NCBI GenBank assembly: GCA_036337435.1
Contig: JAYZEG010000081.1
Coordinates: forward strand, 1-17,146
Direction: 5' to 3'
DNA: 17,146 nucleotides
Source of the DNA: Myxococcota bacterium
Lineage (GTDB): Bacteria; Myxococcota_A; Bradymonadia; UBA7976; UBA1532
Made by a program: the position numbers and the translations under genes. This document shows positions 2,300-17,146 of this stretch, piece after piece (the first letter of the stretch is position 1; every line of letters starts with the position of its first letter). The notes beneath the pieces were generated by a model. It was not told the origin of the DNA and searched no databases. It saw only the letters and a program-made list of their open reading frames with translations.

Positions 2300-2479
2300 A
2301 CCAACCACCTGCATGGCATACCTCGTCGAACACCTTGCCCAACAACAAAATAATTGGTGCAGCCACACCACGAACTTGCCGTGAACATATCTGCTTTGGT
2401 CAGCGCCGCAACTGCCCTTGTTATGAGAGCCGATTCGAGCTAGCTTTTGACGTCCATCAGTTTGTGGAGTCGTGTCATC

Positions 2480-3976
2480 ATGTTCGAGCGCGTCCTTGTA
2501 GCCAACCGTGGCGAAATTGCAGTGCGGGTCATGCGCACACTGCGTGAAATGGGTATTTCGCCCATCGCCATTTATAGCGAAGCCGACCGGCACAGCTTAC
2601 ACGTGCGTATGGCCGATCAGGCTGTCTGCGTGGGCCCTGAGGCATCCAGTGCCAGTTACCTGGTTATCGATGCCGTGCTCGATGCAGCCCGCCGAACGGG
2701 TGCTCAGGCCATCCATCCGGGCTATGGCTTCTTAAGCGAAAATGCAGAGTTCGCAAAGCGGGTAATCGCCGCTGGAATAAGCTGGATTGGACCTCCACCG
2801 GCTGCCATTGAAGCGATGGGTGACAAGCTGATTGCGCGCCGAACCGTCGTCGCTGCCGGTGTGCCTGTCGTACCGGGCTTGTCTGAACCCATCACAGATC
2901 CAGACTCGGCTGCACAGTATGCATCTGAAATCGGCTTCCCCGTTATGCTCAAAGCATCCGCAGGCGGCGGTGGCAAAGGCATGCGGCTGGTACAAGACCC
3001 CGCAGACTTCCGGAAAGCACTAGACGCTGCCAAACGAGAAGCCGCGAGTGCATTCGGCAACGACGCCGTCTACCTTGAGAAATTTATTTCTGAGCCTCAC
3101 CATGTTGAAATTCAAATACTCTGCGATACCCACGGCAACGCCATTCATGTCGGGGAGCGGGAATGCTCGGTTCAACGGCGACATCAGAAAGTCATAGAAG
3201 AGGCACCCAGTCCGTTTATCACCGAGGAGACCCGCCAGAAAATGGGTCTGGTTGCCGTCGAGGCAGCAAAGGCGTGTCAGTACGTCGGCGCGGGTACGGT
3301 GGAATTCCTAGTCGGCGGCGATCAAGGGTTCTATTTCCTGGAGATGAATACACGTTTGCAAGTCGAGCATCCTGTCACGGAACTCGTCTACGGCGTCGAC
3401 TTGGTCGCCCAACAGGTGCGTGTTGCCGCGGGGCTGCCACTCAGTTTTACGCAGGCGGACCTTGTCCCAAGGGGTCATGCCTTGGAATGCAGGATCTACG
3501 CGGAGGATCCGGACACCTTCATGCCGTGCCCTGGCGACATTACAGCCCTTCAATGGCCCAGCGGGCCGGGCGTGAGGGTCGATGCGGGCGTCGATGTCCA
3601 TTCCGTTGTGCCCATGGCATACGACCCGATGATCGCGAAGATTTGCACATGGGCACCGACGCGAGAACATGCCATTCAGAGAATGCATAGAGTGCTGGAT
3701 GAAACGGTCATTCTTGGCCTTACGACCAATATTCCACTGCATCATCGGATTCTTGCTCAACCCGATTTTAAACGAGGGCGTTACGATACAAGCTTACTCA
3801 ACGGTGAGCTTCCGACTGTACAGAGGCTGGGTGAGCCTCACCAGGCAGATGCCATCGCAGCGGCAGCGATTGCGCGTTACGAAAATGACCTAGCGAGAAC
3901 ATCGGGCCAGGGTCTCGCGCCGGGCGGTGCAAGCCCCTGGCTGAGTCAAGGTCGTTCAACTCAGCTCGGAGGGTAA
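2480..3976 (+). CDS. accC: Biotin carboxylase subunit of an acyl-CoA (probably propionyl-CoA) carboxylase
   Basis: Motifs VLVANRGEIAVR, AIHPGYGFLSEN, KASAGGGGKGMR, ERECSVQRRHQK, FLEMNTRLQVEHPVTE and YDPMIAK. GGAG at 2466-2469 precedes ATG 2480. No fused biotinyl domain. Context next to the mutase suggests a PccA-like role. Confidence 0.93.
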   Translation: MFERVLVANRGEIAVRVMRTLREMGISPIAIYSEADRHSLHVRMADQAVCVGPEASSASYLVIDAVLDAARRTGAQAIHPGYGFLSENAEFAKRVIAAGISWIGPPPAAIEAMGDKLIARRTVVAAGVPVVPGLSEPITDPDSAAQYASEIGFPVMLKASAGGGGKGMRLVQDPADFRKALDAAKREAASAFGNDAVYLEKFISEPHHVEIQILCDTHGNAIHVGERECSVQRRHQKVIEEAPSPFITEETRQKMGLVAVEAAKACQYVGAGTVEFLVGGDQGFYFLEMNTRLQVEHPVTELVYGVDLVAQQVRVAAGLPLSFTQADLVPRGHALECRIYAEDPDTFMPCPGDITALQWPSGPGVRVDAGVDVHSVVPMAYDPMIAKICTWAPTREHAIQRMHRVLDETVILGLTTNIPLHHRILAQPDFKRGRYDTSLLNGELPTVQRLGEPHQADAIAAAAIARYENDLARTSGQGLAPGGASPWLSQGRSTQLGG

Positions 3977-3980
3977 TGAT

Positions 3981-4511
3981 TTGAGATACACAGTCGAAAT
4001 TGACAATGAACTGGTGCCTGTTGTGGTGCGCCCGGTCGGCACGGGCCGCTACGAGGTTCAGATCGGTGACCAGCCCGCCCGTCTCATGGACGCAGCAGTC
4101 CAGCAGGACTACGTTCACCTAATCGACGGCCTCAAAAGCTCAGCCGTCCAACTTGGAGATGGCGGTCAAACGGTTCAGGCACACCTGGATGGTGCAGTAC
4201 ACAAGCTCGCCGTCCTCGACAATCGTACAGCCCAGAGGCGTGCGCGCGAGCGTGATGCACAGCTCAGCGGCGGCGCGTCTATCATCCGGTCACCCATGCC
4301 AGGACGAATCGTCGCTGTGACCGTGTCGAAAGGCGACCGAGTGAGAACTGGCCAGGGGGTCATCATCGTTGAGGCCATGAAGATGGAAAATGAGCTTCGA
4401 GCAGAAATTGATGGATTGGTTGACGAGATTCACGTCAAACCCGACGACTTGGTCGAAGGGAATGCCACCCTGATCACCTTCGCACCATTGGGAGATGAGA
4501 CTCATGAGTAG
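3981..4511 (+). CDS. Biotin carboxyl carrier protein subunit (N-terminal linker domain plus biotinyl domain)
   Basis: SPMPGRIV...[10 protein letters not shown] biotinylation motif. TTG start lies 7 nt after GGAGGG (3968-3973). Confidence 0.92.
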
Positions 4512-6150
4512 CGATCCGTTTCACAACTGGAAAGAGAGGTATCTAGACCCCGTAACTCAGAAATTCGGCACGCGTCGTGACACCTTCGAGACCAGCAGCG
4601 GCATTCCGGTAGGCCCCATTCAATATCGCCATCAAACCGACTCCGAGACCCGCTTAGGATTTCCCGGTGAATTTCCCTTTACACGGGGGGTTCAACCAAC
4701 CATGTACCGGAGCAAGTTCTGGACCATGCGGCAATATGCAGGTTTTGGCACCGCTGAAGAGTCCAACAAGCGCTATCGATATTTGCTCGAACAAGGGACA
4801 ACTGGTCTGAGTGTCGCCTTCGATTTACCAACTCAGATGGGCATGGACAGCGACGATCCAATGTGTCTCGGAGAGGTTGGCAAAGTGGGTGTTGCCATCG
4901 ATTCTATCGAAGATATGGAAACCCTATTCGACTCTATCCCACTGGATAAGATTTCCACGTCCATGACCATCAACTCATCGGCCAGTGTTCTCTTGGCTAT
5001 GTATTATAGCGTTGCACAAAAGCAAGGCGTCGATGGCAGTCAGATTCGCGGAACAATACAAAACGATCTGCTCAAGGAATATATTGCTCGCGGGACATAT
5101 ATTTATCCGCCGCGGCCATCGATGCGCATCATTACTGACATCTTTGACTGGTGCGCAAAGAACACGCCCAATTGGAATACAATCAGCATCAGTGGCTATC
5201 ATATTCGCGAAGCGGGAAGCACTGCGGCCCAGGAGCTGGCGTTTACGCTTGCGGATGGAATAGCTTACGTCGAAGCGGCGTTGGAGTGCGGCCTTGATGT
5301 AGACCAGTTTGGCCGCCGTTTGAGCTTTTTCTTTAATGCTCACAATCACTTCCTAGAGGAGATTGCAAAATTCCGGGCCGCAAGACGGATGTGGGCCAAC
5401 ATCATGAAATCACGATTCGGCGCCACCACTGACCGAGCGTGTAAGCTTCGGTTCCATACCCAAACGGGTGGCAGTACTTTGACCGCCCAACAGGTCGATA
5501 ACAACGTCGTCCGAGTCACTCTCCAGGCCCTCGCCGCAGTTATGGGCGGTACGCAAAGCCTTCATACGAACGGCAGAGATGAAGCGTTAGGCTTGCCCAC
5601 ACCCGAGGCTGCGAAGCTCGCTTTAAGAACCCAACAGGTCATCGCCCACGAAAGCGGCGTTGCAGATTTCGTCGACCCTTTCGCGGGGAGCTTTGCAATC
5701 GAGCAACTCACTGATGAGCTTGAAGCCAAAGCCTACGAATACATCAAAAAAATAGACGAACTCGGCGGTATGATTTCAGCCATCGAAGCTGGTTACGTCC
5801 AACGCGAAATCCAAGATTCTGCTTATCGAGCCCAACTCGCGATTGAAAGCCGGGAGCAAGTCATCGTTGGTATGAACCAATTTACCGAGACTGAGAGCGT
5901 GGACAACGACGTGCTTAAAATCGATCCGGTTTTGGAGCAACAACAAGTAGAGCGTGTCAGAGCCTGGCGAATCAAGCGATCAGACGGCGTCTTGGAGCAC
6001 CATCAGGCAAGGCTCATCGACGGAGCGCGAGGCAGCGAAAACCTCATGGGCCTCATCGTCGATGCCGTTCAGGCTGGACTGACTGTTGGTGAAATCTGTG
6101 GTGCCATGAAGAGTGTATTTGGCCGCTACGTCGAGCCAGTGATTATCTGA
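4504..6150 (+). CDS. Methylmalonyl-CoA mutase, substrate-binding large subunit without a B12-binding domain
   Basis: Motifs [55 protein letters not shown] and GGTQSLHTN. It ends without a DxHxxG domain. GGAG at 4491-4494 favours ATG 4504 over 4495; the start overlaps the upstream gene end. Confidence 0.95.
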
Positions 6151-7027: not shown

Positions 7028-7666
7028 ATGGTTAAGAAAACTGAAAAACGCAAGCCCGGTCGACCGAGCAATCCAGTTGGCAGACCGAAATTGATCGAAA
7101 TTGCACGCGGTGTATTTGCCAGTGCGGGATACGCTGGTGCGAGTTTAAGTCGCATCGCTGAAGCTGCGGGTATTCGGAAGGCGTCACTTTATCACCACTT
7201 CGATACCAAGGAAGCTCTGTATCTCGCTGTGATGGACAATGTCATCTCTGATCTGCAGGCTGTCTTCATCGAGGCTGTATCCGCCAAAGGCAGCTTTGAG
7301 GCCCGACTTGATGAAGCAGCCGAAGCCGCCATCAGTTATTTGGGCAGGCAGCCAGATGCCGCGAAAATTGTACTGCGTGAGATGGTTGATGGTGGTCCTT
7401 TCGTCCAGGCTCACGGTGCCCAAGCTATTAACCTGACACTTGCTGTGGCTGCCCAATTTTTTGAATCTGGGATGGATGCCGGAGTCTTTAGACGGCAAGA
7501 TCCGCTGCAACTCACGCTGGCCATTTCTGGCATGTGCCTGTTTGGCTTCGCGGGCGAACGCGTATCACAGCGTCTCCTCCAAAGTGGCCACGATGACTCG
7601 CTATCCACCAACGATCGAGTATTGTTTCTAAAACAACAGGTCCAACAGATGGCAAAGGGTGCTTAG
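7028..7666 (+). CDS. TetR/AcrR family transcriptional regulator
   Basis: N-terminal HTH signature GRP...ARGVFASAGYAGASLSRIAEAAGIRKASLYHHFDTKEALY; 212 aa. Confidence 0.93.
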   Translation: MVKKTEKRKPGRPSNPVGRPKLIEIARGVFASAGYAGASLSRIAEAAGIRKASLYHHFDTKEALYLAVMDNVISDLQAVFIEAVSAKGSFEARLDEAAEAAISYLGRQPDAAKIVLREMVDGGPFVQAHGAQAINLTLAVAAQFFESGMDAGVFRRQDPLQLTLAISGMCLFGFAGERVSQRLLQSGHDDSLSTNDRVLFLKQQVQQMAKGA

Positions 7667-7694
7667 GAGCCTACCGACAGCCGAAGGAGCAGCC

Positions 7695-9416
7695 GTGCGA
7701 ATTCTTGTCCCGACGATCGCGCTCATCCTGTCTGCTTGTGGACACGATTCAACCCGCTTAGATGATGGACCTATGGATGCACAGCCCCAGCCGCGTCAGG
7801 ATGGGTCAATGGACTCGGCCCTGCAGGCTCGTTTGGATTCTGGCGATGATGCCACGGTGCCCGATAGTCACAATCGAGCAGATGCAAATGTATCATTGGA
7901 TGCAGAAGTCGCAGACAGCGGGCTAAGTGCGTCTGATTTGGGCCTCAGAGACCAAGCTGTACTGCCCAATCTGGATTGGCACCTGGATGGTGCCACCCAA
8001 CCAGATTCGTCGATACGGATAGATATGGGGGTCGACTTCGGTTTGATGTCTGATGCAGCCCACATCCCAGAGGATGCGATCATTGCTATGGACGCACAGC
8101 TCGAGGATGTTCCACCGTTGCCGATTTGTGGTAACGGCATCCAAGAAGCTGATGAAGATTGCGATGATGGCAACCAGAATCAGAGGGATCGTTGTACCAA
8201 TGAGTGTCGTTTTAACATTCCCTGCCCTGGTCCTGTCCCCGCCTGTTTAGACAGGGACGATTGGGCACCAAATCTGGATGAGCATCATATGGTGCCCCAG
8301 CACCGTTGCGCATTCCGACTCAACGCACCGTCCGCCGATGCTTGGGACGATGGCCATGATTTAATCAATCGACTGGCCGATGCCATCGGCAACCGCCGCA
8401 ATATCTCAGGTGTCCTCAATGACTTAAATCGTGAGGGTCGCTTCGGTGTGACGAACCAAACAGCGACTCGCTTGCGCAACCACGATTATGTTGGTTTTGT
8501 ATGGAATAATGGAGACATGGACGTCTCCTATTGGTATCCGCAAGGGATTACAGGCACAAGCGATGCCTATGATAATGGGCGTCTTAACGGTCGACGCTTA
8601 ATCATGGTGTCCTGGTACCATCGGACCGACAACCGACCGACCAAGGGAGCACGAATCTCTCTGGTCGATTTAACCAATCCGAACGATATTCGTTATCGAC
8701 ATCTACTTCTGGTCCGTCCAATCGCATTTCCCGGCGGAGTCGACTATCGCGCGGTCCGCTACGACCATGGCGACAACGACGCGTTGCACGCAGGCGGCAT
8801 CGTTTGGCTTGGCAATCATCTTTACGTAGCCGATACCCGTGTCGGCATGCGAGTGTTCGACCTGAACAATATTATGAGAGTGAGTCTTACTGACGATTCA
8901 GACCTGGTGGGGCTGAGCGACGACGGTTCAAGAGCACATAACTACAGATATATCGTGCCACAAATCGCACGTTATGAACTCACTGATGACTCTTGCGCTT
9001 ATTCATTCTCTGCGATTTCGTTAGACCGAAGCACCAACCCACCCACCATCCTCAGTGCCGAGTATCGTTCCTCGGATATCCAAAGTCGACTCGTTCATTG
9101 GCCGGTGGACATGAATAACCAACGCTTGATGGATATCGACGGCCGTGTGGATGGACGAGGAACGGTCATGGCCGCACAAACACGAGTCCAAGGCGCACTC
9201 AGCTGGCGCGGCGACTACTATATTTCATCGTCCAGTCAGTATCTGCGATTCGGACGGCTCTACCGAACCAGGCCTAATTTTGGAGAAAGCAGTATCAGTG
9301 CTTGGGTGTATGGCTGCGAGGACCTTTATTATGAGCGAGACACCAATCTCATTTGGACACCGGCCGAATTCCCCAATTTCAGAGACGTGGTCAGTATTCC
9401 ACTGAGAACGCCCTAG
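7695..9416 (+). CDS. Lipoprotein: Asp-rich linker, Myxococcus-type Cys-rich repeat (DUF4215-like), C-terminal beta-rich (propeller-like) domain
   Basis: AAGGAG precedes GTG 7695. Signal MRILVPTIALILSAC carries a lipobox. CGNGIQEADEDCDDGNQNQRDRCTNEC is the repeat. The C-terminal region has WYPQGIT, YRHLLLV and HAGGIVWLGNHLYVADT..GMRVFD. Confidence 0.8.
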   Translation: MRILVPTIALILSACGHDSTRLDDGPMDAQPQPRQDGSMDSALQARLDSGDDATVPDSHNRADANVSLDAEVADSGLSASDLGLRDQAVLPNLDWHLDGATQPDSSIRIDMGVDFGLMSDAAHIPEDAIIAMDAQLEDVPPLPICGNGIQEADEDCDDGNQNQRDRCTNECRFNIPCPGPVPACLDRDDWAPNLDEHHMVPQHRCAFRLNAPSADAWDDGHDLINRLADAIGNRRNISGVLNDLNREGRFGVTNQTATRLRNHDYVGFVWNNGDMDVSYWYPQGITGTSDAYDNGRLNGRRLIMVSWYHRTDNRPTKGARISLVDLTNPNDIRYRHLLLVRPIAFPGGVDYRAVRYDHGDNDALHAGGIVWLGNHLYVADTRVGMRVFDLNNIMRVSLTDDSDLVGLSDDGSRAHNYRYIVPQIARYELTDDSCAYSFSAISLDRSTNPPTILSAEYRSSDIQSRLVHWPVDMNNQRLMDIDGRVDGRGTVMAAQTRVQGALSWRGDYYISSSSQYLRFGRLYRTRPNFGESSISAWVYGCEDLYYERDTNLIWTPAEFPNFRDVVSIPLRTP

Positions 9417-9444: not shown

Positions 9445-10899
9445 GTGCTTACAACGTCAAACCACATCATATTCGCTGTTCTGTTTTTCTTGGCGACGCT
9501 CGTTCCTTTGTCCGGCTGTGATGAAGCAACGCCACTTGAGCACTCGGTCGATGCGTTGGCACCGCGCTTAGACCAATTACTGCCTCGAGATGTGGGCCTC
9601 CCACCCGACTTACAACTCGATATGGAGCTTGACCAAAGGCTGGCTGAGGATGCGCAGGCGATCGCAGATGGACGTATCGGCGACCAGAGCCTACCAGATG
9701 CTGCTGAACGTCGACAAGATGGCCGAGTCCTTGATGGCGACTTCGGCACTATCACGAGCCACGACATGGGTATAGATTTGGGTTCAGACGACCCGAATGC
9801 GGAACGAACAGCCCGACGCTGGGCCGAAGCCTATTGTGGTTATATTCGTCCCTGTGCAACCGGCGTAATGAAAGTCGCTGCTTGGGCCGACGGGGATTGC
9901 GTGGAGCAGGTCTATCTGAGCATTCGAGACGGCGAGCTCGCTCGGCTCCAATACGGGTTAGCCGCAGGCCTGATTGAACTTGAACCAGACTCGATCACGC
10001 GGTGCATCAACGCTTATGCTAATCTTGACTGTGCTGCTGAGGACCAATTGGCCAATCGCCGACAGCTTGACGCAGCGTGTAAAGAAACCGTTCATGGTCG
10101 CCTAGGGGATGGGCAACCCTGCGTAGATGACACGCATTGTAGCAGTACACTCTGCCTCGGTGCCAGCACCTGCAGTGGAATCTGTTCGCCGCGCTCCGGA
10201 CTCGGCCAACCGTGCTCCGACGCGTGTATTGGACAATGCGAATGCGAACCCAACCTCATTTGTGATCAAGGTCTGTGTCGTCGTCCTCAGCAAGTGGGCA
10301 CTGCGTGTAACAGAGAATCGGTGTGCGAAGGGGCTCCCGTCTTCGCCACGTGTACCGGCGACGGTGATGTTGATGGGCAGTGTGAAACGAGACCGCTCCC
10401 AGAGATTCCTGCCGTGGGCGGCCGCTGTGGACCCGCACGACTCGGAGAACCAAGCTGCCACATCGACCACCACTGCGTTTACAGGCCTGAAGCCGGAACA
10501 GATCGAGGCCGGTGTGAACTGGAATTTGAAGGACCGGGCTGCCCGCTGGCGTTTCCAGATATGTGTCCGGACAACACCTATTGTACCGATGTTGTACCAC
10601 GACGAGGTGCCAGGTCGCCGATTTACATGGGCCGCTGCCAGCCAAGAGCCAGCGACGGTGAGCCCTGCTGGGCTATCGGCATGCGTGCCATTACGCCCGA
10701 GTCAAACTGTCAAAGAGGCTTACTTTGCTTGAATGACCGAGGCCGAGCTGTGGGCCGCTTTGGTCCTGATAACGAAATTGGTCAGTGTACTGCCAGGCGC
10801 GCTCTGGGCACTCAATGTAGCGCAGACAGTCAATGTGCAAGCAGACGCTGTATGGGCGCTGTTTGCGTCGTCCCGCTGGACTGTCCTCAACTCGACTGA
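9445..10899 (+). CDS. Cysteine-rich lipoprotein with tandem Dickkopf/colipase-like Cys modules
   Basis: Hydrophobic signal ending in an LSGC lipobox, an Asp-rich linker, about 39 Cys by hand count, and repeated GxxC-x(n)-C-x(3-8)-C-x(n)-GxC units. Confidence 0.8.
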   Translation: MLTTSNHIIFAVLFFLATLVPLSGCDEATPLEHSVDALAPRLDQLLPRDVGLPPDLQLDMELDQRLAEDAQAIADGRIGDQSLPDAAERRQDGRVLDGDFGTITSHDMGIDLGSDDPNAERTARRWAEAYCGYIRPCATGVMKVAAWADGDCVEQVYLSIRDGELARLQYGLAAGLIELEPDSITRCINAYANLDCAAEDQLANRRQLDAACKETVHGRLGDGQPCVDDTHCSSTLCLGASTCSGICSPRSGLGQPCSDACIGQCECEPNLICDQGLCRRPQQVGTACNRESVCEGAPVFATCTGDGDVDGQCETRPLPEIPAVGGRCGPARLGEPSCHIDHHCVYRPEAGTDRGRCELEFEGPGCPLAFPDMCPDNTYCTDVVPRRGARSPIYMGRCQPRASDGEPCWAIGMRAITPESNCQRGLLCLNDRGRAVGRFGPDNEIGQCTARRALGTQCSADSQCASRRCMGAVCVVPLDCPQLD

Positions 10900-11579
10900 T
10901 CACCGGTTGGAGAACGCTGAGCCCCCCATTCAAGATGTTTCGCCAGCGACTCCGATCCAAACACGGTCTCGGCAAACTCGTATCGGCTCGCCTCTAAGGT
11001 GACACCGAGTCCATCCGCCAAGCGGTTCATAAAGGCAAAACAAGAGGTCACTAAAACAATGTCAGTGACAGCCTCGTCTCCCAGGCCATGACGTGTTAAG
11101 GCATCCACATGCCCCCGCTTCACCGTCTCAGGTCGACGAGTCAACTGCTCGACATAATTCAGAATCGCCATGTCCGCATCGGTGAGAAGGCCGCTCGGAA
11201 GAATCCGCCTAGCCCAGTCATTACACGAGTCACCACCGGTGCCCCTACTTGTTCGGTAAATGGCCCGAACGAACCTAAGGAAGTCTTGCTCTGCCCCGGT
11301 CCAAACATCACGCAGAAACTCTGCATGAGAAATCAGTCAGTAATAGCACTGGTTTAATGCAGAAACCGTGCTTGCAATGAGCTCTTCTCGATAGCGGCCC
11401 AGTGTGGAGCCACCAAATGTCACCGCGTAATTCATCTGAAGAACTCGGCGTAGTGCATCAGGACGATGACTCATTGATGCGATCACGGCAGGTACATTAC
11501 GCCCTTCCTTTCGATACTGTGCCGTCACTCGCGAGAGCGCAGTATCTGGCTTTTCTTCAGGTAAACCAATCCACCCCAT
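10887..11579 (-). CDS. AhpD/carboxymuconolactone decarboxylase-family peroxidase-related selenoprotein (CxxU), 230 aa with Sec81
   Basis: The two track ORFs share a frame. The intervening sequence is stop-free after TGA 11339-11337 (LISHAEFLRDVWTGAEQDFLRFVRAIYRTSRGTGGDSCNDWARRILPSGLLTDAD-MAIL...). The motif EELIASTVSALNQCYYU-LISH matches AhpD-type E..NxCxxCxxxH. The C-terminal half (LTRRP...FAFMNRLADGLGV) is typical of the family. AAGGAG precedes ATG 11579. Confidence 0.9.
11308..11328 (-). promoter_or_regulatory. Putative bacterial SECIS element
   Basis: The mRNA reads UGA-CUGAUUUC-UCAUGCAGA-GUU-UCUGCGUGA: a 9-bp stem with one G-U pair and a small apical loop containing GU, starting 17 nt after the UGA. 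This fits the bacterial SECIS pattern. Confidence 0.75.
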
Positions 11580-11738
11580 AGGAGGTCTCCTTTTAGCCTA
11601 TGACCACACCAGTGAGGGTAACCCCTGCCTGAATGGTATTCAAGCCGAACCGTGTCAAAAGGCAACGCCCCAAAAACCTGAAAACCATTGTGCGGATTGC
11701 ACTTAGAGAAACCTTGACCTGGGTGACGGCATCTTAAA

Positions 11739-11756
11739 ACCAATGGTGCCATTGGT
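11739..11756. promoter_or_regulatory. Palindromic candidate operator ACCAATGG-TG-CCATTGGT in a divergent promoter region
   Basis: Perfect 8-bp inverted repeat with a 2-nt spacer, too tight for an RNA hairpin loop. It lies about 35 nt upstream of the FapA-like gene. Confidence 0.4.
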
Positions 11757-11791
11757 GTACCAAACCCGGCGGCAGAGCCAAAGGGGATACG

Positions 11792-13513
11792 GTGACGATG
11801 CAGTATATTAAGTGTCATGGCTGTTCGGCCACTCTCAAGTTCGCCCATCGCGGGTCAAAAACGCGGGTACGTTGTCCCCGGTGCCGGGCCGTCACGGCCG
11901 CACCAACACGGCCCGATGACACGTCTAAGCTACCCGACTTCACCGAGCCACTCGATGTCGCGACTCAAACCGCCGAATTGGACGATCCTGAGCTTAATTT
12001 CCCAGACATAAGGGACTCTGTAGACCCTCCCACCGATGAATCGAGGCCTGGCTTTGCCATGCAGATTGACCACCAACTCAGCACTGTACATTTGGTCGTC
12101 GAAACCAAGCCCCCAGTTCTCGCCAATTACGAGGGCGTCATCGCAGCTTTAAAAACCAACCGGATCAGCCATGGGATTGCATTCGACACCATCAAGGTCG
12201 CTTGTATGTCGCTCGACTACCCAGAAGACCTGAAAATCGGTCAGTCATTCCTAATCGCACAAGGCGTTCCGGCTGCTGTAGGCGACGATGGCACTATCGA
12301 ATATCTGGTCGACGTGACCGGGGAAAACCAGCAGGCTACAGCGAGTCAAAACGACCAAGATGGACGGGTTGACTACAAAGCCATCGCTGGAATCCTCACA
12401 GTAAACAACGGTGCTCCATTAGCTCAAATAACAAAGCCGACGATGGGAACACCAGGGGTAGGCCTCGATGGCAAGCCGACCCCTGCTTTGCCCGGGCAAC
12501 CTGTCCAAATTCTGCCTGGGGAAGGCGTTCGCTTTAGTCCAGAAGACAATCGGTATTACGCCACTCGAGATGGACGCCCACTGCTGACAGACTCAAATTT
12601 GACGGTCCTTGATATCTATGAAGTTGCCGAAGATGTTGACATGTCAATTGGTCACATTGCTTTCAACGGACATGTCATTGTGAGAGGCAGCGTCTTAGAC
12701 GATTTCGAAATCAAATGTAAGAGTATAGAGGTACACGGTACGGTCGGAGCCGCCCGCATTACGTGTAGTGGGGATGCGATGCTTCACGGCGGTGTAAATG
12801 GTAATCAAAACGGTCGCCTGCGGATTGGCGGCCATTGTTCCGCAAAATATCTCAATGAAGCGGAATTGTTCGTAAACCGCGACTTGACAGTCGAACGTGG
12901 CGTATCGAATTGCCAGCTTGCCTGTGGGAGCGTCGTTTTTGCTGATCGGGTGATCGGTGGTCGAGCCGTTGCGCTAAAGGGCTTCGAAATCAATTATCTG
13001 GGGTCTGACTTGGGAGTGAGCACACATCTCATTTCAGGACGCCATCCTCTACGAGAAAAATTGACAGCGAGGCTATCAACAGAAATGGCACTTCTGGAAT
13101 CCCTTCAGAAGGATCCCCGAAGTGCTGTGTCCAACCATAGCGTGCAAGACGGATCCGCTGGTCCAAATCCAGCCGACCTGAATCCTGAGGAGCAGACGAA
13201 AGACCCCCTAGAAGACACAAACGAAGACGAATCAGCAGCGAGCGCGGGCACCAAAGAAATCTGGGAACGGATCTGTGGCTTACAGACGAAGCTGGCCTCT
13301 TTGGAGGAAAAAGAGTCCGCCTTAGCCATTAAACAGGTCAACATCGGCTCCCAACTATTCGCCGATGTCATCGTCACCCTGGGAGAGCAAACGCGAGAGT
13401 TTAAGACGCCCAAGGGTGGCAAACAATCAATTCGGCTCGATGAAAACGGAGCCATTGATATTGGCCCCTACAAACGCAGGCCACGCAACACTATGCCAGA
13501 GAACCAATCCTAG
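11792..13513 (+). CDS. FapA/DUF342 family protein with an N-terminal zinc-ribbon finger
   Basis: N-terminal CHGC-x16-CPRC. DUF342-like motifs IAQGVPAAVGDDG, DGRVDYK, PTMGTPG, DVDMSIGHIAFNGHVIVRGSV, AKYLN, IGG and LGSDLGVST, then a coiled-coil-like C-terminal part. Start is GTG 11792 or ATG 11798. Confidence 0.85.
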   Translation: MTMQYIKCHGCSATLKFAHRGSKTRVRCPRCRAVTAAPTRPDDTSKLPDFTEPLDVATQTAELDDPELNFPDIRDSVDPPTDESRPGFAMQIDHQLSTVHLVVETKPPVLANYEGVIAALKTNRISHGIAFDTIKVACMSLDYPEDLKIGQSFLIAQGVPAAVGDDGTIEYLVDVTGENQQATASQNDQDGRVDYKAIAGILTVNNGAPLAQITKPTMGTPGVGLDGKPTPALPGQPVQILPGEGVRFSPEDNRYYATRDGRPLLTDSNLTVLDIYEVAEDVDMSIGHIAFNGHVIVRGSVLDDFEIKCKSIEVHGTVGAARITCSGDAMLHGGVNGNQNGRLRIGGHCSAKYLNEAELFVNRDLTVERGVSNCQLACGSVVFADRVIGGRAVALKGFEINYLGSDLGVSTHLISGRHPLREKLTARLSTEMALLESLQKDPRSAVSNHSVQDGSAGPNPADLNPEEQTKDPLEDTNEDESAASAGTKEIWERICGLQTKLASLEEKESALAIKQVNIGSQLFADVIVTLGEQTREFKTPKGGKQSIRLDENGAIDIGPYKRRPRNTMPENQS

Positions 13514-14845: not shown

Positions 14846-15194
14846 AGAGAACTCCAACAGAACACGACCGGGGGCCGGTGAGTTATTCGGGGCGAAGTCT
14901 AGCAGACTCAGTCGAAAAATGAAATTCCCTTCTTCGGTCGCCGATTGGAAACAAACTCATCTCGCTACGGTGCGCTGGTCTGTCCATCGCCCAGGCCATT
15001 TTACTCTTCGACTTTCGAAAAAGCCTGGTTTTCCACGCGACCAACAATCGGTCGAAAAAAAAGTATTACCCTGTGCAGGTTTATCGGCGCAGACACAACG
15101 GCCGGTATTTTCAGCCCGGTTCGACAATTAAAGCTATGCATGAATCGTTGACTGTCGCACACTTCATGGACACGCGAGAAATGGAGTTAATCCC

Positions 15195-16616
15195 ATGGAC
15201 ATTGATCCAAGCTGGCTTTCAACCCTCCCTGTCCTCGTAGCCATCAGTCTTGCATTTCTGACCCGGCGGGTGTTGCCTGCTCTTTTTGCGGCCGTTGTGA
15301 GCGGCGGCTTTGTGTGCGCGTACCAGACCCAAGATTTAGGGGATATCAATGTAGTGCAGAGATTCCTGCTTCCCGCACTGGGGTCGACAGCCTATGCCAA
15401 AATTCTCGTCGTCTACCTCTGGTCCCTCGGGGGTCTTATTGGCATGTGGCAGAAAACAGGCGGTGCGGAGCACTTTGCTCGAACCGTCGGCTCATTGGTG
15501 GCAAAGGGCCGCACATCAGCCAAGTTTTTTGCTTGGCTCGTTGGTGTCATTTTCCATCAGGGAGGCACGATCAGCACGGTCCTGGCAGGCACCACGGTCA
15601 AGCCGGTCACAGATGAGCACGGTGTGTCCCATGAAGAGTTGGCCTATATCGTTGACTCTACGGCATCTCCCGTCGCAACGGTTCTACCCTTCAACGCCTG
15701 GCCTGCTTACGTCGCAGGCTTAGTGCTCGCCACGCTTCCATTTCTTAAGACAGAGACCGATGCATTCAGCCTGTTCTTTTCATCCATCGCCTTTAATTTC
15801 TACGGAATCTTTGCGCTCTTAATGACCTTACTGTTCGCACTCGATAAACTGCCATGGCTGGGCAAGCGAATGAACGCGGCGCGGGTCAGAGCCCTCGAGA
15901 CAGGTGAGCTGGATGGGGCAACCGCGAGACCGCTTCTACCTCCTGCACAAACCGATCAAAGGGCACCAGGGTATCAGCCATCCTTGCTGGATTTCTTCAT
16001 TCCGATAGGGGTCTTACTTTCTCTCGCAATCGGTCCAGTGCTCCTATTTGACAAAACCTATATCGATGAAGCTTTCGTGGCCTGCGTTCTGTCTTCAATG
16101 GTGGTGGCCAAATTACGCGGCATGTCGCTTAATTCAGTCCTCGATGGTTTCATCTCAGGCTGCAAAAGCATGACCATCGGGGCCATTATGTTAGGACTTG
16201 CAGTGACTTTGGCCGCTGTCACTAAAGAGTTACAGACAGCCCAATATTTGGTTTCACTCATGGATGGGTTCATCCCACTCGTGGTGCTGCCGGCTTTCTT
16301 GACAGCGGTCTGCATGGTCATTGCTTTCGCCTGCGGTTCGTCCTGGGGTACCTATGCCGTTGTTTTTCCCGTTGCACTGCCCTTGGCCTACGCACTCAGC
16401 ACCGATATCACCTATGTTCAGATCTGTTTTGGCGCCGTACTTGGTGGGGCTGTCTTCGGCGACCAATGCTCCCCGATTTCAGACACGACCATCTTGTCAA
16501 GTATGTTTACCGGCTGCGATCTGATGGACCATGTTGGGACGCAGCTGCCTCTCGCACTGACAGCGGCGGCAATGGCGGCCGGTGCGTCGACCTTAGCAGT
16601 CCTTGTTCTTGTTTAG
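15195..16616 (+). CDS. Na+/H+ antiporter NhaC family transporter
   Basis: Many hydrophobic helices and motifs VSHEELAYIVDSTASP, GSSWGT and GAVFGDQCSPISDTTILSS...DHV. GGAG precedes ATG 15195. Confidence 0.9.
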   Translation: MDIDPSWLSTLPVLVAISLAFLTRRVLPALFAAVVSGGFVCAYQTQDLGDINVVQRFLLPALGSTAYAKILVVYLWSLGGLIGMWQKTGGAEHFARTVGSLVAKGRTSAKFFAWLVGVIFHQGGTISTVLAGTTVKPVTDEHGVSHEELAYIVDSTASPVATVLPFNAWPAYVAGLVLATLPFLKTETDAFSLFFSSIAFNFYGIFALLMTLLFALDKLPWLGKRMNAARVRALETGELDGATARPLLPPAQTDQRAPGYQPSLLDFFIPIGVLLSLAIGPVLLFDKTYIDEAFVACVLSSMVVAKLRGMSLNSVLDGFISGCKSMTIGAIMLGLAVTLAAVTKELQTAQYLVSLMDGFIPLVVLPAFLTAVCMVIAFACGSSWGTYAVVFPVALPLAYALSTDITYVQICFGAVLGGAVFGDQCSPISDTTILSSMFTGCDLMDHVGTQLPLALTAAAMAAGASTLAVLVLV

Positions 16617-17146
16617 GAGGCCCTGACGTAGACCCATTCATCAGAATCCGACAGCTGAGATTCGAAGCGATAACCATCAGTGCTGAACTCTTTTAGCGCC
16701 TCGGGCTTGGTAATTCGGTTCTGTACGATGTAGCGCGCCATACTTCCGCGTGCCCGTTTCGCGAGAAAGCTGATCACCTTAGCCTTTCCGTCCCGCACTT
16801 CTTTGAAGACCGGCGTAATGACCCGACAACCGAGTGCCCGCACGGGTACCGCGCTGAAGTACTCTTTTGATGCGAGGTTGATTACAACCTGAGACTCATG
16901 TCCGTCTAAGCGATGGCGAATCTCTTGGGCGATGGTTTCACCCCAAAAACGGTACAGCCCTTGACCTGCGTCCGTGTGCAGCTTAGTGCCCATCTCGAGT
17001 CGGTAAGGTTGAATCGAGTCCAAAGGCCTCAGTAGCCCATAGAGACCCGACAATATACCGATGTTTTCTTGGGCGAACGCTAACTCGGAATCACTCAAGG
17101 TACCGGCTTCAAAGCCAACATACGTGTCACCAGCAAACGTCAAAAC
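16613..17146 (-). CDS. yaaA: Peroxide stress protein YaaA (DUF328), 5' end outside the window
   Basis: Motifs FAGDTY, ILSGLYGLLRPLDSIQPYRLEMG, INLASKEY and SFLAKRARGSMAR. The frame is open to the window edge. Confidence 0.93.
   Translation of the reverse strand, partial: VLTFAGDTYVGFEAGTLSDSELAFAQENIGILSGLYGLLRPLDSIQPYRLEMGTKLHTDAGQGLYRFWGETIAQEIRHRLDGHESQVVINLASKEYFSAVPVRALGCRVITPVFKEVRDGKAKVISFLAKRARGSMARYIVQNRITKPEALKEFSTDGYRFESQLSDSDEWVYVRAS

Follow-up and report, generated by a model that had tools for sequence, protein, structure and literature searches.

AhpD-like proteins (COG2128) carrying a CxxU motif, in which U is selenocysteine (Sec), were presented as a new selenoprotein family on the basis of 27 Sargasso Sea sequences (Zhang, Fomenko & Gladyshev 2005, PMC1088965). 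In a survey of 37 Global Ocean Sampling samples, 'AhpD-like 1' (COG2128, CxxU) is represented by 299 selenoproteins and stands as the fourth most numerous entry of the table (Zhang & Gladyshev 2008, PMC2398784). A 2026 review lists an 'AhpD-like protein, TIGR01926, CxxU', and also equates NF041238, the 'alkylhydroperoxidase-related (seleno)protein', with 'hypothetical protein 1' from the Sargasso Sea data (PMC13188914). The paper on BSepDB describes genes of this kind as being routinely truncated or missed by annotation (PMC13326102). Here we analyse such a gene on the minus strand of a 17,146-nucleotide contig of a Myxococcota bacterium (JAYZEG010000081.1; the whole stretch is called the window below), where it had been called as two separate open reading frames (ORFs) on either side of an in-frame TGA. 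The family is among the commonest marine selenoproteins; the gene is a real member of it, but not a new kind.

Reading frame, homologues and protein family

Translated with TGA as U, the minus strand from 11579 to 10887 forms one frame of 230 codons with a lone in-frame TGA at codon 81 (11339-11337). The ORF 11337..11579 (minus strand, 80 codons) halts at this TGA straight after N-Q-C-Y-Y. Past it, 54 open codons (82-135) lead up to an ATG at 11171 (codon 136), the start of the ORF 10887..11171 (minus strand, 94 amino acids), which is in frame with the first; an in-frame ATG, GTG or TTG was looked for in codons 82-135 and none was found. The TGA falls within C78-Y79-Y80-U81-L82-I83-S84-H85, with E66 upstream at an E-x11-C spacing to C78. 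An AAGGAG (11592-11587) and a 7-nucleotide (nt) spacer precede the ATG at 11579-11577, which aligns with the 'MxW(I/L)xLP' start of homologues, and the terminal stop of the frame is another TGA (10889-10887). With TGA81 read through, no further defect was found across the 230 codons. The AhpD-like gene alone, among the 14 large ORFs of the window, has an in-frame TGA. Its features are given below, each with the evidence on which it is based.

10887..11579, minus strand: very probable AhpD-like selenoprotein gene, complete coding sequence of 230 codons closed by the TGA at 10889-10887 (translation with TGA as U, TIGR01926 over its cut-off, ends matching those of homologues, AlphaFold2 model)
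11337..11339, minus strand: predicted Sec codon UGA (codon 81), second position of CxxU (TGA or TGC in homologues, alignments to PDB entries, contigs of sequencing runs X3 and X17)
11308..11328, minus strand: SECIS-like (selenocysteine insertion sequence-like) hairpin of 9 bp, 11328-11320 with 11316-11308, loop GUU at 11319-11317 (minimum free energy fold)
11326-11320 with 11316-11310, minus strand: family-conserved core of the hairpin, 7 bp (RNAalifold consensus, covariation)
11346..11348, minus strand: Cys78 codon, first residue of CxxU and presumed resolving thiol (invariant in 26/26 aligned sequences)
11325..11327, minus strand: His85 codon of the E-x11-C-x2-U-x3-H signature, which also lies in the 5' arm of the hairpin (invariant column; columns 19-21 of the hairpin alignment)
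11382..11384, minus strand: Glu66 codon of the same signature (invariant column)
11577..11592, minus strand: ribosome-binding site AAGGAG, spacer and ATG (sequence; start aligning with homologues)

To place the TGA among relatives, use was made of 31 loci encoding homologues, taken out of 96 pattern matches, with one genome per species scanned. At the aligned codon 81, TGA is found in 26 of the 31 loci and TGC in three (L027, L047, L049), the motif being absent from the remaining two (L046, L048). Eight positions (E66, S73, C78, C/U81, H85, G165, R186 and G192) are invariant in all 26 of the aligned sequences. The 149 codons 3' of the TGA are conserved at the protein level in all homologues, which implies that translation of the downstream part is required. 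A search of 30 relatives of the organism (E <= 1e-10) recovered the gene from two of the three other genomes of the genus, with one in-frame TGA each; the 27 remaining genomes, which belong to its family, order or class and of which several are incomplete, gave no match. The distribution among the genomes searched is patchy, which is not proof of absence.

The codon was also seen in contigs from sequencing runs of other studies, which are not necessarily independent of the source sample. A contig of run X3 (11205-11355) covers the TGA unchanged, with differences only at 11253 and 11255, and a contig of run X17, an RNA library, covers it without differences (11293-11443); runs X1 and X2 miss the TGA. 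Its unchanged state in the X3 and X17 contigs argues that the TGA is not an assembly error. The runs that contain this stretch are labelled as seawater or marine metagenomes. Two contigs of the X17 marine metatranscriptome span the 5' half of the gene together with the Sec codon (11293-11581) without differences, a weak hint of expression, as DNA can occur in such libraries.

For the assignment to a family, the read-through protein was scanned with C in place of U (plus a final C for the stop codon). Pfam CMD (PF02627) was matched with 35.9 bits against a cut-off of 23 (E 7.6e-9), over residues 40-90 only; this domain is common to the whole superfamily, and a scan of the 14 window ORFs showed no genes for aromatic degradation. 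The more specific NCBIfam profile TIGR01926.1, 'peroxidase-related enzyme', gave 89.7 bits against a curated cut-off of 81.8 (E 1.9e-25) and was also passed by all eight homologue proteins scanned, which we had chosen from the 31 loci (90.1-154 bits). The CMD/AhpD core domain TIGR00778 was passed as well, with 29.3 bits against 27.8. Among solved structures, the best sequence matches were the AhpD-type proteins 2prr, 2pfx, 6k40, 2oyo and 3c1l. The CxxC of 2prr, 2pfx and 6k40 falls exactly on C78..U81, with U81 at the place of their second Cys and with the His conserved.

The AlphaFold2 model, built from a 26-sequence alignment, is a single all-helical domain of 13 helices with a mean pLDDT (predicted local distance difference test) of 91.6 and a pTM (predicted template modelling score) of 0.88. 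A Foldseek search of this model against the PDB was headed by the same AhpD-type entries, in the order 2prr, 6k40, 3c1l, 2pfx and 2oyo, with E about 1e-6 and a target template modelling (TM) score of 0.77-0.83. The debrominase Bmp8 (6ohi, 6ohj) came next, with E 1e-4, a target TM of 0.73 and 18% identity in the structural alignment. Fold and TIGR01926 score place the protein in the AhpD-like family. The sequence statements of the initial annotation, which had joined the two ORFs in frame into one 230-residue protein of the AhpD/CMD family with UGA as codon 81 at the second Cys of the AhpD motif, all check, and homologues do align across the UGA with Sec or Cys, as it had foreseen.

Membership of NF041238 AhpD_rel_CFYUT was considered and rejected, as the protein scores 66.2 bits against a cut-off of 175 and covers only profile positions 167-254 of 357, and none of the eight homologue proteins scanned reaches the cut-off either. 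In L026 and L028 an upstream ORF lies in the same frame and ends in a TGA 3-4 codons before the AhpD-like start (L026:2401-3000 and the corresponding part of L028); in L023 the region matching that ORF is not coding in that frame. When the upstream part was joined to the L026 protein (P0157), NF041238 was still failed, and the upstream ORF is probably a neighbouring gene.

SECIS-like hairpin and Sec machinery

The minimum free energy fold of the window sequence contains a 9-bp stem with a GUU loop, which starts 8 nt 3' of the UGA. To compare it across the family, 27 TGA-bearing sequences (26 distinct rows) were placed in an ungapped alignment that starts 6 nt 5' of the TGA, in a register derived from the window's own fold. 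The RNAalifold consensus of these sequences is a 7-bp stem, columns 20-26 with 30-36, closed by a 3-nt loop; it is the same as the core of the window hairpin and begins 10 nt after the TGA. This register pairs 81.6% of the cells; shifting the 3' partners by 1-3 columns lowers the figure to 33.8-56.8%. Covariation scores 0.346, where shuffles average 0.178, and none of 500 shuffles reaches the observed value, a count that is not to be read as a probability.

At pair 23:33, 12 distinct sequences have GC and 10 have CG; at pair 26:30, nine have AU, seven CG and six GC. The third bases of codons 89 (Leu, CTG/CTC) and 88 (e.g. Phe, TTT/TTC) occupy columns 33 and 30, respectively, and covary with the second bases of codons 86 and 87. 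As the compensating sites are synonymous third positions, conservation of the protein does not by itself predict the pairing. All seven pairs are formed in 21 of the 27 TGA forms and G is first in the loop in 25, whereas the five non-TGA homologues form 1-3 of the seven pairs and lack the core. As background, only 4 of the 602 TGA trinucleotides of the window, counting TGA81, are followed by all seven pairs; for other loci of this genome the figure is 7 of 2430. One such case, the TGA at window position 14920 on the plus strand, also has 7/7 pairs and G first in the loop; about such a number is expected by chance.

The terminal TGA at 10889-10887, which had been named from the start as the true stop, has one of seven pairs in the family register and an unremarkable downstream fold (z -0.87). 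The lack of a hairpin in register fits a plain stop. The use of UGA with both meanings in one mRNA is normal for bacterial selenoprotein genes.

The genes for Sec synthesis and insertion (selA, selB, selD and tRNA-Sec), which had been supposed to lie elsewhere in the organism, were all found in the same genome. The selA gene scores 426 bits. Adjoining it is selB, a 606-residue ORF which as a whole protein reaches 247.5 bits, over the cut-off of 242.25. The tRNA-Sec reaches 71.9 bits with Rfam against a cut-off of 47 and is called by ARAGORN as tRNA-SeC with anticodon tca; no tRNA was found in a scan of the window itself. The selD gene scores 336 bits and has one in-frame TGA, which on read-through lies within A-C-A-G-G-U-A-A-K-L; the gene also ends in TGA.

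L001:1378-2540, plus strand, corresponding to G000:C51 about 18425-19587 of the organism's own genome: selD, with its in-frame TGA at L001:1531-1533 (profile match and read-through)

Read in this way, SelD is a second predicted selenoprotein of the genome, with UGA in both senses. On this machinery, the stem-loop 3' of UGA81 in the mRNA would act as a bacterial SECIS element and bind SelB-GTP-Sec-tRNA(Sec), and SelB would deliver the Sec-tRNA(Sec) to the ribosome paused at UGA81, where Sec would be inserted without termination. At the terminal UGA, which is not followed by a hairpin, translation would end.

Proposed redox chemistry and alternative readings

It is very probable that the ORFs 11337..11579 and 10887..11171 are one intact gene for a 230-residue AhpD-like selenoprotein (TIGR01926/COG2128, CxxU), and with much the same confidence UGA81 is predicted to encode Sec. 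The Sec reading is supported by four independent lines, namely the family, the homologues, the hairpin and the machinery.

In AhpD of Mycobacterium tuberculosis, the second Cys is nucleophilic and is activated via His and Glu, while the first Cys resolves. This protein (PDB 1knc, TIGR00777), a lipoamide-dependent AhpC reductase, has E-x11-C-x2-C-x3-H as its signature, in the form of E118, C130, C133 and H137. Sec81, Cys78, His85 and Glu66 would likewise constitute a redox centre of the type E-x11-C-x2-C/U-x3-H in one AhpD-fold domain. Sec81 is put at the nucleophilic position because the second Cys of M. tuberculosis AhpD is the nucleophile; it would most likely attack a peroxide or an oxidised partner protein, after which Cys78 may resolve the intermediate as a selenenylsulfide, to be reduced by a cellular thiol system. 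As a best guess, and a likely one if the gene is real, the protein would work as a peroxide-linked thiol/selenol reductase. For the name 'AhpD-like peroxidase' given in the initial annotation, the family holds, while 'peroxidase' denotes an inferred activity. The nearest relative that has been characterised is the AhpD-like DR1765 (6k40) of Deinococcus radiodurans, deletion of which is reported to cause H2O2 sensitivity, with the cysteines of its CxxC needed for full complementation (PMC8945050).

A number of observations weigh against this interpretation. The single-sequence fold of the 76-nt region is unexceptional (z -1.40), 18 of 200 shuffles folding as well; the case for the hairpin is a comparative one for this reason. 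Six of the 27 TGA forms fall short of seven pairs (two with six, one with five and three with four). The hairpin overlaps codons for the conserved H-A/G-E-F-L-R stretch, and kinship is frequent among the 27 sequences (e.g. L029/L031, L044/L045, L026/L028); owing to this kinship and codon overlap the shuffle statistics overstate significance. The source genome is a draft in 95 contigs and is 87% complete. The X17 metatranscriptome contig attests presence in an RNA library only, not translation past UGA81. With regard to the chemistry, the canonical AhpD profile TIGR00777 was failed (21.9 bits against a cut-off of 191.95), M. tuberculosis AhpD was a weak structural match (E 0.16-0.21), and the assignment of Sec81 as nucleophile leans on what is known of that enzyme. 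A Pfam scan of the 14 window ORFs found no ahpC/peroxiredoxin or thioredoxin gene beside the AhpD-like gene; with no redox partner adjacent, the partner and substrate are not indicated by the neighbourhood.

If the TGA were a nonsense mutation of a Cys codon (TGC or TGT), or an error of sequencing or assembly, the gene would be dead or would really encode CxxC. TGC and TGA differ by one base change, Cys forms occur in the same branch (L027 with TGC, P0010 and P0011 with CxxC) and the assembly is a draft, but 26 of 31 loci, from many lineages, and both same-genus genomes with the gene have TGA there, the 230 codons hold no other defect, the hairpin is kept by compensatory changes only in TGA forms, and the same TGA recurs in contigs of two other runs. 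This explanation is extremely improbable and close to refuted. Hardly to be credited at all is a reassigned genetic code, in which every TGA would stand for Trp or Gly (compare codes 4 and 25) and residue 81 would not be Sec. TGA ends 4 of the 14 large window ORFs, among them a methylmalonyl-CoA mutase whose Pfam match extends over the full 512-position model, and this use as an ordinary stop shows that the code is not reassigned; the 13 large ORFs other than the AhpD-like gene have no internal TGA, the non-TGA homologues with the motif carry Cys rather than Trp or Gly, and a complete Sec machinery is present in the genome. What speaks for reassignment is the public representative P0017 (180 residues), recorded with W at the Sec position (CHYW, within C-H-Y-W-T-A-H-H-G); here the TGA of a homologue was evidently translated as Trp by some pipeline. 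It is also conceivable that two products are made, termination at UGA81 dominating, with an 80-residue fragment as the main or a regulatory product and the full-length protein formed only when selenium is available. Read-through of UGA in bacteria competes with release factor 2 and drops under scarce selenium, and N-terminal halves of 80 (P0014) and 79 amino acids (P0061) are called as separate proteins in other data sets. The 80-residue piece nevertheless breaks off in the middle of the redox motif, at the start of a helix, and is unlikely to be functional because it is cut inside the motif of a single-domain fold; the 149 downstream codons are conserved, yet no start codon occurs in codons 82-135. 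We consider the two-product reading quite improbable.

A different kind of alternative accepts the gene as a genuine Sec gene but gives it another of the thiol chemistries for which the AhpD fold with a CxxC/U centre is used, such as a reductive dehalogenation like that of the marine debrominase Bmp8, or the reduction of a specific protein disulfide or selenenylsulfide. The presence of Bmp8 among the structural matches (E 1e-4, target TM 0.73), the lack of a neighbouring ahpC or peroxiredoxin gene, the deposition of the TIGR01926-type structures 2prr, 2pfx and 2oyo as 'uncharacterized peroxidase-related protein', and an insertion of ~25-30 residues together with a C-terminal extension, both missing from the ~180-residue forms, can all be cited for it. 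AhpD-like proteins are however closer in both structure and sequence (E about 1e-6), the identity to Bmp8 in the structural alignment is 18%, and DR1765 is linked to H2O2 tolerance (PMC8945050). We regard another chemistry as unlikely.

Surroundings, annotation and comparison with known systems

The AhpD-like gene stands alone between a convergent ORF of 484 residues and a divergent FapA-domain gene. The neighbouring features of the window are as follows.

9445..10899, plus strand: ORF of 484 residues with no Pfam match at E <= 1e-5, overlapping the last 13 nt of the AhpD-like gene including its stop region
11792..13513, plus strand: divergent FapA-domain gene
16613..17146, minus strand: YaaA peroxide-stress gene, 5'-truncated by the window end (PF03883, E 2.5e-61)
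2447-6150, plus strand: three-gene run of biotin carboxylase, biotin-carrier protein and methylmalonyl-CoA mutase
7028-7666, plus strand: TetR-family regulator, preceding the 585-residue ORF
7659-9416, plus strand: ORF of 585 residues with one DUF4215 repeat as its only Pfam match (E 8.2e-7)

The genes at 2447-6150 look like a propionyl-CoA/methylmalonyl-CoA pathway cluster. The YaaA fragment lies 5 kb from the AhpD-like gene, and a link between the two is without evidence. A promoter scan of 10600-11900 returned no promoter-like site, and a terminator scan of the same interval returned two sites, inside the gene or at its start, where ~1.1 are expected by chance.

The kind of misannotation that had been predicted for this gene is also seen for its homologues in public protein collections. 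All eight near-length matches in a collection of 5.8 billion proteins begin straight after the TGA (M-S-H-A-E-F-L-R or M-V-S-H-). In the representative library, the N-terminal halves P0014 and P0061 end in C-F-Y, and full-length entries are found as the Cys forms P0010 and P0011. The practical value of the result is one of annotation, as gene callers truncate both this gene and its relatives at the Sec codon. Taken as a single gene, it enlarges by one member the selenoproteome of a marine bacterium that clearly uses Sec, its SelD being a predicted selenoprotein too; it alters nothing in current knowledge of Sec decoding or the AhpD family, a class that was described in 2005 and that the initial annotation had rightly called not new.

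The gene resembles the described AhpD-like selenoprotein family in passing TIGR01926, in having CxxU with Sec predicted at the second Cys, in the existence of Cys homologues, in a stem-loop that closely follows the UGA and has G in its small apical loop, and in its marine habitat. Its active-site region is related to that of NF041238 AhpD_rel_CFYUT, and its nearest relatives (L023-L026 and L028) carry C-F-Y-U-T, but it differs from that group in a score under the cut-off and a partial match to the profile. Compared with M. tuberculosis AhpD, it fails TIGR00777, has a weak structural match and is not adjacent to an ahpC gene. It shares its fold with DR1765 of D. radiodurans (6k40), 2prr, 2pfx, 2oyo and 3c1l (target TM 0.77-0.83), although these have Cys at the second position, are 21-25% identical and are without the insertion and the C-terminal extension.

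The one peculiarity of the gene is that it belongs to a long branch. Shorter AhpD-like forms have about 175-195 residues, whereas this branch has 215-230, with ~25-30 residues inserted behind the active-site helix and a further two helices at the C-terminus. This long form is found in the window gene, in nine loci (L020-L028) and in P0010 and P0011. In the window protein its extra parts comprise residues ~100-133 (about 11280-11180, minus strand) and ~196-222 (about 10990-10915, minus strand), in which AlphaFold2 places the helices H97-111, H119-126 and H197-220. As a tentative suggestion, to which we would give a rather low likelihood, the long form may represent, instead of a merely decorated version of the ~180-residue form, a functionally separate subfamily of AhpD-like seleno- and Cys proteins with its own partner or substrate.

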